Origin: Actinomycetota bacterium
GTDB taxonomy: Bacteria; Actinomycetota; Thermoleophilia; BMS3ABIN01
NCBI GenBank assembly: GCA_016235065.1
Contig: JACRMB010000005.1
Location: 246,733-270,732, forward strand
DNA: 24,000 nucleotides
Direction of reading: 5' to 3'
Made by a program: the position numbers and the translations under genes. Below are positions 4,613-12,321 of the stretch, piece after piece. Each line of letters begins with the position of its first letter. Position 1 is the stretch's first letter. The notes beneath the pieces are model-generated. The model searched no databases and was not told the origin of the DNA. It saw only the letters and a list, made by a program, of their open reading frames with translations.

Positions 4613-5883
4613 CCCCGCCGGCCCAGTCTGGAAAGCGCACCCGCCCCCAGAAGCATGACTGCGGCTGCAGCTATTAGTGGCGACTTACCTTTCCCTTGCC
4701 GGTCAAGGGAAGCATTATCTGGCAGGTATTCCTGGAATCTCTGTCCCCAGGTGGATTCGGCGATGCGGTTGAGACGACGCCAGCCGATCCACGGATACCA
4801 GATGTTATCCCGGCAGAACCTGCCAAGCGGAGCAGAAAATGACCGGCAGACATTTTCGAACCTGCTTTCCAGGCCTCCATAAGGACCGCGAAAACGGAAG
4901 TCGATGGCGGCAAAGGCATCGCCGCCGCCGTGCGGTGAGCTGCCGACGTGCGGTGAGCTGCCGACGTTGGTGTGCGGCGAACCGCTGGTGTCTCCTGCTG
5001 CCGGCTTCATGCCAGCTCCCGGCTCATCATCCTCACCTATGACTACAACATCGATACCAGCGGTATCGGCGCAACCCAGGCCTCGTTCGTGCGCCAGGCG
5101 AATATGGCTGATCGATAATGGCTCCAGACCCATCATTCGCGCAATCACAGCATCGACAGCAACCGGATCCGCACCGGCTGCGATATAGCCCTTCTCATAA
5201 GGCGTCAGATAATACGGCCCGGGGCCGTCGCCGCAAAATACCCCATCGCTGACGGCAAACAGTCCCTCGTGCAGCTCAAGCTGCAGCGCCAGCAGATCGA
5301 CCAGCAGCTCATCGGGCGATTCGGCCGCAGCCAGGCGCAGATTCTCGTTCTCCCTAAGGAACGCCGACAGGGCGTTTTCCACGGCGCCAGCGATGACGCC
5401 CCTGGCGCTGGTCTTCATGGTAGGAAGATGGATCATGTTGCTGCCAGGAAAAAAATCGGGCACCAGGATGCCGTCGCCACAATATCTGCCCAGAACCGCC
5501 AGCTCCGCCTGTGGCTCATATCGCACCCATTCAACCGGCGGCTCTTCCAGGCAGGTGATGCCGAGGCCGGCACGCTCCGCTGCGACAGTAAGGCCGTTGT
5601 TGCGTTCCCCCCTGCGGGGATCGATATGGCCACAACCGCTCTCAACAGGCCGGATGGAAGCCGCGTCGAAACCGTCTTCGAGCATAGTCCTGGCGACTCC
5701 CTCCAGCTGCCAGGGAGCTGTAGAGCATCCAGGGTACCAGAGGTCCCAGGGAATATTTATATTCAGGACGGTATCGCGGCCAGGCTTTACCGTCTCAGCA
5801 TATCCGGCCGTGCGGAGCAGGTAGCCATAATCCTCGACTACAGTCTCCGGACTGGTCTTCATCACTGTCACCCGAGCGTTCAT
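4609..5883 (-). CDS. DUF362-domain protein with a C-terminal extension and a predicted C-terminal transmembrane anchor
   Basis: Typical DUF362 features are present: a VTVMKTSPE start and ADPVAVDAVIARMMGLEPLSISHIRLAHERGLG...IDVV. The tail ends in GKSPLIAAAAVMLLGAGAL. I prefer ATG 5883, 4 nt after the recN stop, over the ORF maximum at 5937, which would overlap recN by 50 nt. Confidence 0.75.
   Translation of the reverse strand: MNARVTVMKTSPETVVEDYGYLLRTAGYAETVKPGRDTVLNINIPWDLWYPGCSTAPWQLEGVARTMLEDGFDAASIRPVESGCGHIDPRRGERNNGLTVAAERAGLGITCLEEPPVEWVRYEPQAELAVLGRYCGDGILVPDFFPGSNMIHLPTMKTSARGVIAGAVENALSAFLRENENLRLAAAESPDELLVDLLALQLELHEGLFAVSDGVFCGDGPGPYYLTPYEKGYIAAGADPVAVDAVIARMMGLEPLSISHIRLAHERGLGCADTAGIDVVVIGEDDEPGAGMKPAAGDTSGSPHTNVGSSPHVGSSPHGGGDAFAAIDFRFRGPYGGLESRFENVCRSFSAPLGRFCRDNIWYPWIGWRRLNRIAESTWGQRFQEYLPDNASLDRQGKGKSPLIAAAAVMLLGAGALSRLGRRG
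4930..4965. repeat. 18-bp perfect tandem duplication inside the DUF362 gene
   Basis: gtgcggtgagctgccgac occurs at 4930-4947 and 4948-4965, followed by a degenerate third copy. It is in frame (6 codons) and encodes VGSSPH VGSSPH on the minus strand. Confidence 0.85.
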
Positions 5884-8538: not shown

Positions 8539-9345
8539 TTACCGCTCCGCCAGATTGTCGATCAGTGCGGCGATCACGCTGTCCGCATCCCCTGGTGGCA
8601 GAGCTTCCGGCCGGTCCCTGTCATCAGCCAGATGAATCAGGAATTCGACATTCCCCTTCGGTCCACGTATGCCCGATTCTGCCAGGCCCCGAACCGTGAG
8701 CCCCAGTGATTCGGCGTACTCCCAGAAATCGGTGAGCACCCGCCGATGCGTCTCCGGATCACGGACTACACCACCGCTACCCACCTTGCCCTTGCCCGCT
8801 TCGAACTGCGGTTTAATCAACGCCACCAGCTCGAATCCGGGCTTGAGGCATTTTATCACAGGCGGCAAGACTTTCTTAAGAGAGATGAAAGAGAGATCGA
8901 AAGTGGCAAAACCCGGCGCCTCTGACAAAAGCCCGGGCTCGATACCACGGATATTCGTCCGTTCGTGGACCTCGACCCGGGGATCGTTCCGGAGCTTCCA
9001 GTCCAGCTGGCCGTAGCCGACGTCGACTGCTATGACCTTGCGGGCTCCATGCTGGAGCAGACAGTCGGTGAAGCCGCCAGCGGAAGCGCCGGCGTCGATG
9101 ACGGCGGCTCCAGTCACATTCAGGTCGAACTGCTCAAAGGCCGTCTCCAGCTTGAGACCACCACGGGAGACGAAACGGGGTTCCTCCTTCAGGCTTATCT
9201 CAACATCGGGGGCCACCATCGCGCCAGCCTTGGAGACTGGCTGCCCGTTGACGCTCACCTCGCCAGCCAGCACCGCCGCGGCTGCCTGCGACCGGGAAGA
9301 AAAAAAACCCCGCTGGACGAGGACCGTGTCGAGGCGGGTCTTCAA
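8539..9345 (-). CDS. tlyA: TlyA-family rRNA (cytidine-2'-O)-methyltransferase (S4 plus FtsJ domains)
   Basis: MKTRLDTVLVQRGFFSSRSQAAAAVLAGEVSVNG (S4-like) followed by DAGASAGGFTDCLLQHGARKVIAVDVGYGQL (SAM-binding). TTG start at 9343-9345. Confidence 0.9.
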   Translation of the reverse strand: MKTRLDTVLVQRGFFSSRSQAAAAVLAGEVSVNGQPVSKAGAMVAPDVEISLKEEPRFVSRGGLKLETAFEQFDLNVTGAAVIDAGASAGGFTDCLLQHGARKVIAVDVGYGQLDWKLRNDPRVEVHERTNIRGIEPGLLSEAPGFATFDLSFISLKKVLPPVIKCLKPGFELVALIKPQFEAGKGKVGSGGVVRDPETHRRVLTDFWEYAESLGLTVRGLAESGIRGPKGNVEFLIHLADDRDRPEALPPGDADSVIAALIDNLAER

Positions 9346-9349
9346 ACAG

Positions 9350-9428
9350 CCCTCACCCTGGGGACCCTGGGGGACACCCTCACCCTGGGGGACACATTAC
9401 TTAATTGGTAGATAAGTGCACACATTAA
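9350..9428. repeat. Left REP-like repeat cluster downstream of the transposase gene
   Basis: The full copy cctgggggacacattacttaattggtagata (9384-9414) is the exact reverse complement of 10255-10285. Outer partial copies are ccctcaccctgggg (9350-9363, 9377-9390) and ccctgggggaca (9365-9376). An inner degenerate half-copy is acacatta (9420-9427). Confidence 0.85.
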
Positions 9429-9461
9429 GAATCTCCACCTGTCATCATCGTAAAAAACTCC

Positions 9462-10151
9462 TCACCACGGCCGCGACGCCGTAACGCCCTGTGGTCCAGG
9501 CTTACCCTTCCGGAGCATCCTTCCCGTTTCCTGCTCCAGTTGCTGGATAAAACTATCTCCGCCCAGCGGCCTGCCCGTACGCTCATGCTTTCTAAGGATA
9601 CCGGCCAGCTCTAAAGGTATATCATTTTCCGCTTCCGCATCGAGAAATCTCGACCAATCACCAGCGACAATCAATGGCAACGATGGCCTGGCAACCAGCC
9701 TGTCTGCCCTGTTTTGTATATTTGCAGCCGCGCTGCTCCAGGGATATTCCTCAGGACGCCCGACCAGACCGGCCCGGACAGGATTCAGTTCGATATAACG
9801 GGCGGCCTGAAGGAGATGACTGTCGTCCATTGGAAATGAGAAGAATCGGCCCTGCCAGAGATAGCCCTGCCAGCTATTACGCCGGTTGATCCTCAGGGAA
9901 TACCTTCTGTGGGTCTCTCTGAATACAACACTGAAACCGGAGGTAGTTTCCGGAACCGCTACAAAGTGCACATGATTCGGCATCAGGCAATAAGCCCATA
10001 TCTCTACAGCGGAACGATCACACCATTCCGCCATGATCTCAATATATGCCCGATAGTCATCATCATTGAAGAATGTCCGCTGTCGACGATTTCCGCGTTG
10101 CGTAACATGATGAGGAACTCCGGGCGCAACTACCCGCGCTATTCTTGGCAT
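9462..10151 (-). CDS. Y1 HUH transposase of the IS200-like / REP-associated tyrosine transposase (RAYT) type
   Basis: HUH motif in LMPNHVHFV and the catalytic Tyr context ARYIELNPVRAGLV. The C-terminal HERTGRPLGGDSFIQQLEQETGR tail is common in this family. The gene is visibly less GC-rich than its neighbours, with AAT/GAT/TAT/ATA codons frequent. Confidence 0.85.
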   Translation of the reverse strand: MPRIARVVAPGVPHHVTQRGNRRQRTFFNDDDYRAYIEIMAEWCDRSAVEIWAYCLMPNHVHFVAVPETTSGFSVVFRETHRRYSLRINRRNSWQGYLWQGRFFSFPMDDSHLLQAARYIELNPVRAGLVGRPEEYPWSSAAANIQNRADRLVARPSLPLIVAGDWSRFLDAEAENDIPLELAGILRKHERTGRPLGGDSFIQQLEQETGRMLRKGKPGPQGVTASRPW

Positions 10152-10159
10152 GAATAAAG

Positions 10160-10188
10160 CTTATACTCATCGAAATAAAACAAGTCAA
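10160..10188 (-). promoter_or_regulatory. Putative sigma70-type promoter giving a leaderless or near-leaderless transposase mRNA
   Basis: On the minus strand: TTGACT (10188-10183), 17-nt spacer, TATAAG (10165-10160), then 8 nt to ATG 10151. No Shine-Dalgarno sequence precedes the ATG. Confidence 0.35.
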
Positions 10189-10239
10189 GAAGGAACTTGT
10201 CTGATGTCCCAATTTCCGCAATTTTTGTCAAAGGGATCG

Positions 10240-10332
10240 AGTAATGTGTCCCTTTATCTACCAATTAAGTAATGTGTCCCCCAGGTTCTACCCCCCAGGT
10301 TCACCCAATTAAGTAATGTGTCCCCCAGGTTC
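10240..10332. repeat. Right REP-like repeat cluster upstream of the transposase gene, overlapping the dxs 3' end
   Basis: ccaattaagtaatgtgtcccccaggttc occurs twice as a direct repeat (10261-10288 and 10305-10332). There is a partial ccccaggttc at 10293-10302 and an inner half-copy gtaatgtgtccc at 10241-10252. All are inverted relative to the left cluster. Confidence 0.85.
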
Positions 10333-12321
10333 GCCGGAGACTTTGCGGTGGTCTGTTGTGATTATCTTTTTTGAAAGCAGCTTCTCTGAGACGTAACCGG
10401 CGACCGCTTCCGGGGTCAGGCCGATGTCGCGCAGCAGTTTGCCGCGGTTTCCATGCGGGATAAAGCTGTCGGGGATGGCGAAGCTCTTTACCGGCACCGA
10501 AGCGTCTTCGGCGAAGAGTTCGCGCACAGCGGCGCCGAAACCGCCCATCGCCGTGCCTTCCTCCACAGTCACAACCAGCTGGTGTTCCGCCGCCAGGCTA
10601 CGGATAAGCTCTTTATCCAGCGGTTTCATGAAGCGGGCGTTGACGACGGTCGGCCGCAGTCCGTGCTCTTCCACCAGCATCCGGGCAGCCCTGCTGCAGA
10701 TAGCTACGCCGGTGCCGATTCCGAGCAACAGCGCCCCCTCGCCGCTATCCAGGACCTCCGCCTTACCAACGGGCAACGCCTCGAAGACCTCAGGCAGAGT
10801 CACGCCCCGTCCCGCTGCGCGCGGGTAGCGGATCGCCGCGGGCGAACCCAGCGTCAGCGCCGTGAAGACCATATTCTGCAGCTCCGCTTCGTCACGGGGA
10901 GCCATGACCGTCATCCCTGGGATCAGGTTCAGATAACCGAGATCGAAGGCGCCGTGATGGGTCGGGCCGTCGTCGCCGACCAGCCCGGCACGATCGAGGG
11001 CGAAGACCACCGGCAGCTCCTGGAGAGCCACGTCCTGCACCAGCATGTCAAAAGCACGCTGCAGGAAGGTCGAATAGATGGCCACCACCGGCTTGAAGCC
11101 GCCGATGGCGAGGCCGGCGGCAAAAGTCACCGCGTGCTCCTCGGCGATGCCTACGTCGAAGAACCGGTCAGGAAACTTCATCTCAAAATGGTACAGGCCG
11201 GTACCGCTGGACATGGCCGCAGTGATAGCGACGATCTTCTCGTCATCTTCCGCCATCCGCGCGAGCCCCTGGCCGAAAGCCTCCGTGTAGGTGATCGGGC
11301 CCGGCTTCTTGATAGCCTTGCCAGTCGAGATCGAGAACGGGGCGATACCATGGAAAGTATCCGGACGCGCCTCGGCGGGTTCGTAACCCTTGCCCTTGAC
11401 CGTGCTGATATGGATCAGCACCGGCCGCTCGATCTCCATTGCGGCCCTGATGCTCTTCCTCAGCGCCTTGACGTCGTGGCCGTCGATGATACCGATATAG
11501 GCGAAGCCCATCTCCTCGAAAAGCATCCCCGGCACCATGAACGCCTTCATACTCTCCTTGATGGAACGGGACGCGCCGCGCAGGCCCGGGATCTTCTCGA
11601 TGATGCCGTGCTCGAACTCCTCGCGCAGTTTGTAGAGGGTCGGATCCAGGCGCAGCCGGTGCAGATACTGGGATATGGCGCCGACGTTGGACTTGATCGA
11701 CATCTCGTTGTCGTTGAGGATGACGATCAGCGGCGTCTTCAGATGCCCGGCCTGGTTCAGGGCTTCGTAAGCGATTCCGCCGGTGAGGGCGCCGTCGCCG
11801 ATCACGCAGGCCACATGGCCCGGATGCCGTTCGGAGTCCGAAGCGGCCTCATCCCCCCACTGCCTGCCTTCGACATCCTCAGCTATCGTCGCGTCGATCC
11901 CCGCGAGCTCCTTCTGGGCAGTCGCCAGCCTGATCGCCTCCTGGATCCCGACCCCATAACTGATGGAAGTCGAGCTGTGCCCGGTGCCGACGATGTCGTG
12001 GTCAGATTCGCATTTATTGGGAAAGCCTGAGAGGCCGCCATACTGGCGGATGGTATGGAAATCCTCGGCGCGTCCCGTGATTATCTTGTGGGTGTAGCAC
12101 TGGTGGCCGACGTCCCAGATTATCTTGTCGGAGGGGCTGTCCAGAACGCTATGCAAAGCCAGGGTCAGTTCGACGACGCCGAGGCTCGGCGCCAGGTGGC
12201 CGCCGACCTTGGAGACGGCGCCGATCATGAATTCGCGGATCTCGTCAGCAAGTTCCTGCAGCTGGCTGTCACTGAGCTGCTTGAGGTCAGACGGCGAATG
12301 GATTTTTTCTAGCAGAGACAA
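10309..12321 (-). CDS. dxs: 1-deoxy-D-xylulose-5-phosphate synthase
   Basis: MSLLEKIHSPSDLKQL..., GHLAPSLGVVELTLALH, WDVGHQCYTHKIITGR, and the GDGALTGG...NDN ThDP motif. TTG start at 12319-12321. The last 7 codons and the TAA stop lie inside a REP-like copy. Confidence 0.96.
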   Translation of the reverse strand: MSLLEKIHSPSDLKQLSDSQLQELADEIREFMIGAVSKVGGHLAPSLGVVELTLALHSVLDSPSDKIIWDVGHQCYTHKIITGRAEDFHTIRQYGGLSGFPNKCESDHDIVGTGHSSTSISYGVGIQEAIRLATAQKELAGIDATIAEDVEGRQWGDEAASDSERHPGHVACVIGDGALTGGIAYEALNQAGHLKTPLIVILNDNEMSIKSNVGAISQYLHRLRLDPTLYKLREEFEHGIIEKIPGLRGASRSIKESMKAFMVPGMLFEEMGFAYIGIIDGHDVKALRKSIRAAMEIERPVLIHISTVKGKGYEPAEARPDTFHGIAPFSISTGKAIKKPGPITYTEAFGQGLARMAEDDEKIVAITAAMSSGTGLYHFEMKFPDRFFDVGIAEEHAVTFAAGLAIGGFKPVVAIYSTFLQRAFDMLVQDVALQELPVVFALDRAGLVGDDGPTHHGAFDLGYLNLIPGMTVMAPRDEAELQNMVFTALTLGSPAAIRYPRAAGRGVTLPEVFEALPVGKAEVLDSGEGALLLGIGTGVAICSRAARMLVEEHGLRPTVVNARFMKPLDKELIRSLAAEHQLVVTVEEGTAMGGFGAAVRELFAEDASVPVKSFAIPDSFIPHGNRGKLLRDIGLTPEAVAGYVSEKLLSKKIITTDHRKVSGEPGGHIT

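Follow-up and report, generated by a model that had tools for sequence, protein, structure and literature searches.

According to the text of Di Nocera, De Gregorio and Rocco (2013, BMC Genomics 14:522; PMC3733652), some genes that resemble those of the REP-associated tyrosine transposases (RAYTs) are flanked by terminal inverted repeats (TIRs), not by repetitive extragenic palindromic (REP) sequences; these units, described apart from the REPtrons, were named TIRtrons and their proteins TIRYTs. Many of the TIRs reported there share the sequence GGGGWSAS (the majority type), and some belong to families of moderate abundance, whose copies stand as singlets, dimers, or clusters. The text of Quentin, Siguier, Chandler and Fichant (2018, BMC Genomics 19:475; PMC6006769) places 20 of the 26 published TIRYTs in TnpA_Y1 subclass 2.1, the second largest subclass, which has a C-terminal extension, for which no REPs were found, and which the authors equate, probably, with the TIRYTs; its subgroup 2.1.2 is widely and patchily spread. 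Here, we analyze a unit of this kind in a 24-kb stretch of DNA (hereafter, the window) from an uncultured Thermoleophilia-like actinobacterium, in which a 229-aa Y1 open reading frame (ORF) bracketed by inverted repeats lies within the dxs-tlyA operon. The element is a TIRtron, and we judge it likely that its resident TIRYT acts in trans on a dispersed cognate repeat and that the unit arose once at dxs-tlyA.

A RAYT-like gene between terminal inverted repeats

The encoded protein carries the motif H60-V-H62 and a tyrosine, Y119, within RYIELNPVRAGLV, and matches the Pfam domain Y1_Tnp at 57.5 bits, so that the 229-aa Y1/HUH transposase named in the original prediction, which had been made from the letters of the window alone, stands. 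The protein passes the NCBIfam equivalog model for RAYTs, REP_Tyr_transpos (NF047646; 82.3 bits, cut-off 80), and fails the IS200/IS605 model NF033573 (21.1 bits, cut-off 55). Its only sequence match in the PDB is E. coli TnpA_REP (4ER8, E 6e-7), and the same search, at E up to 1, returned neither IS608 nor ISDra2. A full-length AlphaFold (AF2) model (pLDDT 85, pTM 0.83) has the same nearest relative: the best Foldseek match is 4ER8 (E 5e-8, TM 0.72 on target), and the next, the IS608, ISDra2, and IS200 transposases, are a thousand-fold weaker at ~5e-5.

At 229 aa the protein is longer than 4ER8 (165 aa), and it ends in a conserved extension of ~90 aa. H60, H62, and Y119 are unchanged in an alignment of 35 homologues, as are W166, HERTGRPLG, F201, E206, and KPGPK in the extension. 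Synonymous changes outnumber non-synonymous ones in each of three codon comparisons (47/27, 59/31, and 61/33). Because the HUH histidines and the tyrosine are invariant, the enzyme appears, as judged from its sequence, to be catalytically intact, and it appears to be under purifying selection. The extension has no Pfam match at E up to 10, with Bac_DnaA_C, HTH_23, and HTH_28 among the domains not found, and no match to PDB sequences better than E 0.18; modeled in isolation it is poor (pLDDT 65), and within the full-length model it lies packed onto the core. The protein belongs to a very large family: a search of 5.8 billion proteins scored at least 8000 candidates, all but one of them significant, and the best 120 homologues among the matches listed are at least 54% identical and come from many phyla. 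The exact 229-aa protein is recorded on one contig only, and plasmid-borne homologues are all distant (no more than 42% identical).

The gene is bracketed by two arms of 44 nt (9384-9427 and 10242-10285) that are 93% complementary and that include the 31-nt perfect inverted repeat noted at the outset (9384-9414 and 10255-10285). Each arm consists of a flank plus GGGGGACACATTACTTAATTGG as the full copy, followed by a degenerate copy 28 nt inward. The inner half-copies, AGTAATGTGTCCC at 10240-10252 and ACACATTA at 9420-9427, each lie 28 nt from the full copy, start to start, and the inner copy on the dxs side begins within a 7-bp stem, AAAGGGA...TCCCTTT. Shorter units recur around the full copies, CCCCCAGGTTC at 10278, 10292, and 10322, CCCTCACCCTGGGG at 9350 and 9377, and ACCCTGGGGGACAC at 9364 and 9382, and a second full copy stands on the dxs side (Table 1); the half-copies and extra outer copies noted at the outset were all located. 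With up to three mismatches allowed, the window holds three copies of AGTAATGTGTCCCCCAGG where 0.02 would be expected, and none of 100 shuffled sequences reached three copies. As a search string the repeat is GGGACACATTACT. Its outer end, GGGGACAC, is present in every full copy in the window and in the corresponding loci of three relatives (L001, L006, and L008), and fits GGGGWSAS.

The single repeat unit, GGGGACACATTACTTAATT, is non-palindromic, without self-complementarity, and both flanks, on both strands, fold no better than shuffled sequences (z 0.2 to 1.7). The unit had been predicted to be REPtron-like. This proved right for the protein, which is RAYT-like by model score and by its nearest structure, and wrong for the repeats, which are not REPs but TIRs with GGGGWSAS. 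Because the REP-hairpin feature fails while the TIRtron features are present, the element belongs to the already described class of TIRtrons; it shows every feature of that class that could be tested, the helix-turn-helix (HTH) nature of the extension aside. TIRYTs exceed RAYTs in length and have sequence signatures of their own and an HTH-like extension at the C-terminus. The protein, in turn, probably belongs to subclass 2.1 of Quentin et al. (2018), by its extension, by the absence of REPs, and by the link to TIRYTs that the text of that paper draws.

An ordinary insertion sequence (IS) of the IS200/IS605 family, recently arrived in the operon, would also have the Y1_Tnp domain, and it would fit a segment that is AT-richer than its flanks, as this one had been said to be and is (GC 0.45-0.56 over 9400-10400 against 0.60-0.68; GC at third codon positions [GC3] 0.53 in the Y1 gene against 0.71-0.79 in tlyA, dxs, and nadK). 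The IS200 model, however, is failed by a wide gap, the flanks hold long terminal inverted repeats and no subterminal hairpins, tnpB is absent, relatives have orthologues at this site that are no more than 65-78% identical, and the repeat is dispersed without the gene (see below). We reject an ordinary IS, which is extremely improbable; that the protein is not an IS200 TnpA had been predicted correctly.

A repeat family dispersed across phyla

One scan of the GTDB species-representative genomes with the 18-mer GGGACACATTACTTAAYT found it in at least 120 stretches from at least ten phyla. The matches listed include Omnitrophota, Actinomycetota, Pseudomonadota, delta-proteobacterial groups, Planctomycetota, Acidobacteriota, Elusimicrobia, WOR-3, Desantisbacteria, and Bacillota-like metagenome-assembled genomes (MAGs); two carriers, Sedimenticola hydrogenitrophicus SB48 and Candidatus Nitrotoga sp. 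M5, are cultured. In 806 kb of sequence taken from these matches we counted 232 copies with no more than three mismatches, against 0.55 expected. The copies obey strict rules of orientation: 59 adjacent pairs face inward, with their TTAATT ends toward each other and spacers of 2-126 nt, and none faces outward; besides these there are 85 singlets and 19 direct pairs, the latter mostly of 28-nt period. The Y1 gene of the window is itself enclosed by a pair of the common, inward orientation. Most copies are extragenic (23% lie within stop-to-stop ORFs, which span 85% of the DNA). The extended consensus is AATT[C/A][C/A]G-GGGACACATTACTTAATT-C.

Most copies stand without the gene. At about ten of the loci a homologue of the protein (47-72% identical) adjoins a copy, and at the rest there is none. 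In the MAG SKS1.bin55, where the orthologous gene stands at dxs|tlyA (L049), at least 15 further contigs bear the repeat. There, as to either side of the window's own gene, most copies pair a full outer unit with a degenerate inner one 28 nt away; the Y1 gene was seen once among the 16 loci listed, the other copies having locus-specific flanks. Protein and repeat also co-vary: homologues of 58-62% identity, which come from Bacillota, Myxococcales, and another lineage, have variants of the core on their flanks, GGGGACACCTTACTTAATT, GGGGACACAATACTC, and GGGGACACCATAC, also written ACACCATAC, ACACAATACTC, and ACACCTTACTTAATT. A scan of metagenomes with the lineage-specific 23-mer GGGACACATTACTTAATTGGTAG gave one match, L129, where another organism has an inverted doublet in the glnA-glnB interval; it is uninformative on the source of the window. 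Viral contigs held no exact copy of the 18-mer, and a literature search for the repeat sequence returned unrelated primers only.

Many copies carry a peculiar scar. Directly outside the GGGG end, and never on the TTAATT side, flank heptamers are reiterated in tandem together with a truncated repeat start (GGG, GGGAC, GGGACAT, up to GGGACACATTACTT), with periods of mostly 9-17 nt. Such reiterations accompany 41 of 191 copies as against 4 of 191 control positions; examples among loci L009-L128 are L033, L036, L053, L085, L094, and L117, and the window has them at 9350-9388 and 10289-10304.

The form of the family raises the question of whether it serves its hosts. The protein might be fully domesticated and move no DNA, its repeats being sites useful to the host (operators, terminators, or nucleoid sites) and the copies that flank the gene autoregulatory. 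Selfish repeats normally diverge along with their host, and an 18-nt core identical over at least ten phyla is unusual for them; moreover, many copies stand as singlets or as direct doublets whose period is fixed at 28 nt and which are unable to form hairpins, and the inner copy beside the gene lies ~45 nt upstream of a putative promoter. Yet the HUH histidines and the tyrosine are invariant, so catalysis is retained, the copies sit at non-orthologous places with locus-specific flanks, and the reiterated flanks and truncated starts look like traces of DNA processing. We therefore consider full domestication improbable.

The usual arrangement differs among lineages. In Actinomycetota MAGs (L013, L032, L048, L085, L091, L092, L102, L106, and L121) it is a direct doublet or triplet of 28-nt period, with the outer copy conserved and the inner degenerate; in the Omnitrophota and Proteobacteria, copies are usually paired as inverted doublets, of which some are perfect 40-nt palindromes (L015, L039, and L052). 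Several short-read contigs (L003, L004, L005, and L006) start exactly inside the first repeat copy, and runs of N stand beside copies in two GTDB contigs (L009 at 5685-5785, L078 from 3890), consistent with assemblies breaking at the repeat. Short contigs of two MAGs labeled archaeon (L073 and L077) bear pieces of the Y1 gene along with the bacterial-type 18-mer, which could be mis-binning or real transfer.

The same site with and without the gene

The closest homologues by BLASTP among the 5.8 billion proteins are 76, 76, 71, and 69% identical, and the three that can be placed all lie between dxs and tlyA (L008, L006/L007, and L001/L002). L049, of the same species as L001, likewise has the gene at dxs|tlyA. 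In pairwise alignments the identity of the protein tracks that of its host gene tlyA (protein/tlyA 78/81 for L008, 72/73 for L006/L007, and 70/73 for L001/L049). The loci of L008, L006, and L001 have CCAGGGGGACACATTACTTAAYT upstream and its inverse downstream, while the rest of the spacer has diverged: the cognate repeat is conserved far better than the DNA that surrounds it. The upstream flank AACC(A/T)GGGGG and the same inverted arrangement of the core are common to all four lineages with the gene, and the four site-matched genes are each other's best matches in the protein search.

Other relatives have the site without the gene. The sister of the window, L134 (89% identity over dxs, tlyA, nadK, and recN), has no Y1 gene; there, the dxs TAG is followed by gaaaat (6 nt) and then by the GTG start of tlyA. 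L139 and L138, also without the gene, have dxs-tlyA spacers of 18 nt and 76 nt. In L136 (GCA_030650885.1, JAUSDE010000013.1; 4640-6000) the junction holds instead an unrelated 426-aa PQQ/beta-propeller gene on the opposite strand. With dxs directly followed by tlyA in three of these four relatives, the Y1 unit must have been inserted into a short dxs-tlyA spacer within the operon, as the original prediction had placed it. The dxs end of L136, ...ATGGGGACAGTTAG, is faintly like the repeat start, and copies of the repeat stand elsewhere in that MAG, on contigs other than this one (L012 and L106).

A common origin of the four insertions is favored, because the genes are mutually closest, diverge in step with their hosts, and share a flank; we thus favor one ancestral gain, with loss aided by seamless excision of the Y1 type. 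Re-insertion or allele exchange at dxs|tlyA may have occurred instead. That orthologues 65-78% identical hold the same site in three other lineages suggests that the insertion is not recent.

A different history would follow if the unit of TIR, gene, and TIR were itself an active, site-specific mobile element, one that entered dxs|tlyA repeatedly or moved in and out of it, the dispersed repeats being by-products (solo ends, similar to miniature inverted-repeat transposable elements). Several observations fit such an element and weigh against the single origin and trans action that we propose. The distribution on the host tree is patchy, with four lineages that have the gene and four that do not, among the latter the sister L134 with its clean empty site, as well as L136, L138, and L139; counted as events, three gains compete with one gain and four losses, which favors repeated gain; and in each of the four lineages the Y1 gene has a lower GC3 than its neighbors (window 0.53 against 0.71-0.79; L008 0.60 against 0.72; L006 0.62 against 0.80; L001 0.70 against 0.79-0.86). 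Also against the reading that we propose are the absence of any copy of the 18-mer in the 24-kb window outside the flanks of the gene; the RAYT model score, barely over its cut-off; a DNA-binding role for the C-terminal extension, unsupported here because the extension has no Pfam or PDB match and its isolated model is poor; and the published accounts of the class (PMC3733652 and PMC6006769), whose text leaves the action of TIRYTs on TIRs open and reports no substrate or reaction. The mobile element would further be suited by the native dxs end, TCCGGGGATGAATAG, which resembles the flank and repeat start CCGGGGACAC. It is opposed by the four genes being mutually best matches in 5.8 billion proteins, with identities that track the host genes; by the AACC(A/T)GGGGG flank common to all four, where other copies in SKS1.bin55 have flanks specific to their loci; and by the single gene copy among the 16 listed loci of SKS1.bin55 and the record of the exact protein on a single contig. 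On this evidence we regard an active mobile unit as rather unlikely.

In the reading that we prefer, with one origin at dxs-tlyA and action in trans, the TIRYT would be a RAYT-like Y1/HUH endonuclease and ligase of single-stranded DNA whose gene is bracketed by inverted copies of its own cognate repeat. The repeat unit comprises a variable 7-nt flank, GGGGACACATTACTTAATT, and a degenerate second copy 28 nt further in. We propose that the unit entered the 6-nt dxs-tlyA spacer in an ancestor of the Thermoleophilia-like clade and was kept by purifying selection in several lineages, with a promoter of its own. The enzyme most likely recognizes the repeat and cuts and rejoins one strand at or near the GGGG-side boundary via H60/H62 and Y119. 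Acting in trans on other copies, it would create and maintain the extragenic family of singlets, 28-nt direct doublets, and inward inverted doublets, the last able to fold as hairpins—a spread that would parallel what has been proposed for RAYTs and REPINs. Scarless loss of the whole unit in relatives would follow from the same chemistry at the two gene-flanking arms, and the reiterated flanks with truncated starts are possibly traces of such processing. A bolder form of the proposal can be offered only tentatively, and we lean against it: that a single TIRYT clade and the near-invariant AATTNNG-GGGACACATTACTTAATT make up one cross-phylum system, that the whole gene unit can leave its site without a scar, and that the reiterations, always on the GGGG side, record the register of cleavage and rejoining.

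The unit has also marked its surroundings. In minus-strand order the window holds ispA, dxs, the Y1 ORF, tlyA, nadK, and recN, all on one strand, in agreement with the predicted co-orientation of the gene with dxs...tlyA-nadK-recN (Table 1). The distal repeat copy (10305-10332) supplies the last 8 codons of dxs together with its stop (10309-10332), and the product ends in ...VSGEPGGHIT*; in relatives without the insertion, and in L008/L007, the end comes ahead of the repeat, as ...VSGDE* or ...GEE*. The dxs of L001 likewise reads into the repeat, in a different frame, and ends in ...QGDTLLNS*. A motif TTGAC(A/T)-17-TATAAG, which ends ~8 nt before the ATG, is kept in the alignment of three lineages (the window, L008, and L001), and this conservation suggests that it is the Y1 gene's own promoter; a consensus promoter scan, which demands that the second hexamer end in T, did not report it. 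Terminator-like hairpins in the region number two against 1.0 expected by shuffling, that is, no excess, and an Rfam search of 9000-10700 gave nothing relevant. Across the four lineages the GC3 of the Y1 gene climbs as that of its host climbs. At two unrelated loci (L006 1934-5851 and L131/L132 1-2459) genes for very large RHS/YD-repeat proteins lie next to the Y1 region; the one in L006 comes after tlyA, at the place expected for nadK.

Table 1. Coordinates of the Y1 unit, its repeats, and its neighbors in the window
Feature	Position	Strand	Details
Y1/HUH gene (TIRYT type, RAYT-like)	9462..10151	-	229 aa; H60-V61-H62; candidate catalytic Tyr Y119; conserved C-terminal extension of ~90 aa
Gene-proximal full repeat, dxs side	10261..10288	-	unit GAACCTGG-GGGACACATTACTTAATT-GG; 18-nt core 10263-10280; upstream arm, extends to 10242
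Distal full repeat, dxs side	10305..10332	-	28 nt, 100% identical to 10261-10288; overlaps dxs end and stop
Reiterated flank unit, dxs side	10289..10304	-	GTGAACCTGGGGG / GTAGAACCTGG; flank and truncated repeat start
Inner degenerate copy, dxs side	10235..10252	-	GGGACACATTACTCGATC; 28 nt start to start from the proximal full copy
Full repeat, tlyA side	9384..9414	+	18-nt core 9389-9406; downstream arm, extends to 9427
Inner degenerate copy, tlyA side	9417..9427	+	GTGCACACATTA; 28 nt start to start from the core at 9389
Reiterated flank units, tlyA side	9350..9383	+	CCCTCACCCTGGGG x2 and ACCCTGGGGGACA; flank and truncated repeat start
Putative own promoter of the Y1 gene	10160..10188	-	TTGACT (10188-10183), 17 nt, TATAAG (10165-10160); ends 8 nt before ATG
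dxs, upstream neighbor	10309..12321	-	C-terminus altered by repeat
tlyA, downstream neighbor	8539..9345	-	S4 and FtsJ domains; TTG start 4 nt past the last flank unit
Terminator-like hairpin and T-run	9463..9486	-	overlaps Y1 gene end and stop; consensus match only
Second terminator-like hairpin and T-run	9308-9322	-	inside 5' end of tlyA

TIRYTs make up a large share of Y1/HUH genes. For this group, the locus and its relatives offer a defined candidate substrate, conserved at the nucleotide level across phyla, together with filled and empty versions of one site and sequence scars at one end of the repeat. If the cross-phylum system is real, its repeat is among the most widely shared short DNA repeats of bacteria, and if the reiterations do record the cleavage register, the mechanism of TIRYTs becomes directly testable. 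For annotation, what is labeled a "transposase" in the dxs-tlyA-nadK-recN operon has probably long been resident there, under its own putative promoter, rather than being a recent, disruptive IS, and the last codons of dxs have been rewritten by the Y1 unit.

Comparison with known systems

Of the systems built on the HUH/Y1 catalytic fold, the IS200/IS605 elements (IS608 and ISDra2 TnpA) share with this unit the fold itself and a seamless excision chemistry that could account for the scarless empty sites. They differ from it in their model, which the protein fails, and in their architecture, as the unit has long TIRs, no subterminal hairpins, and no tnpB; nor is there evidence here of multiple copies of the unit.

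The likeness to the RAYT/REPIN systems is closer. These were reportedly treated by Bertels and Rainey in 2011 and by Bertels et al. in 2017. REPs are imperfect palindromes of 20-40 nt that form hairpins and usually bear a GTAG-type tag, and in a REPtron of the strict sense they border a single-copy gene, with flanking 16-mers that are highly over-represented throughout the genome. Like E. coli TnpA_REP (4ER8), the nearest solved structure, and the RAYTs of Pseudomonas, the gene described here is apparently single-copy and flanked by inverted repeats, and the repeat is over-represented in extragenic DNA, forms inverted doublets, and goes with a signal of vertical inheritance. Whereas REPs are tagged and recognized as hairpins, only doublets can fold here; the protein is ~65 aa longer; and the repeat sequence is common to many phyla rather than specific to a lineage. 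The element thus works like a RAYT/REPIN system yet without the REP hairpin that defines one.

With subclass 2.1 of TnpA_Y1 the protein shares a class-2 (TnpA_REP-like) core, a conserved C-terminal extension, a lack of REP hairpins near the gene, and a wide, patchy taxonomic spread such as that of subgroup 2.1.2. Unlike the described members, its extension matches none of Bac_DnaA_C, HTH_23, and HTH_28, and whereas Quentin et al. (2018) found no repeats, a dispersed family is evident here. In the text of both papers on the class (PMC3733652 and PMC6006769) there is no mention of a single core conserved across phyla, of a strict inward orientation, a 28-nt direct doublet, or flank reiterations, or of filled and empty orthologous sites.

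The TIRtrons themselves are the closest match. Here as there, a RAYT-like Y1 gene has terminal inverted repeats in place of REP hairpins, the arms open with GGGGWSAS (in this case GGGGACAC), an arm may overlap the adjacent ORF, and in some genomes the TIRs make up families of moderate abundance, as singlets, dimers, and clusters. What sets the present case apart is its source, an uncultured Thermoleophilia-like actinobacterium, and its place within the dxs-tlyA operon.

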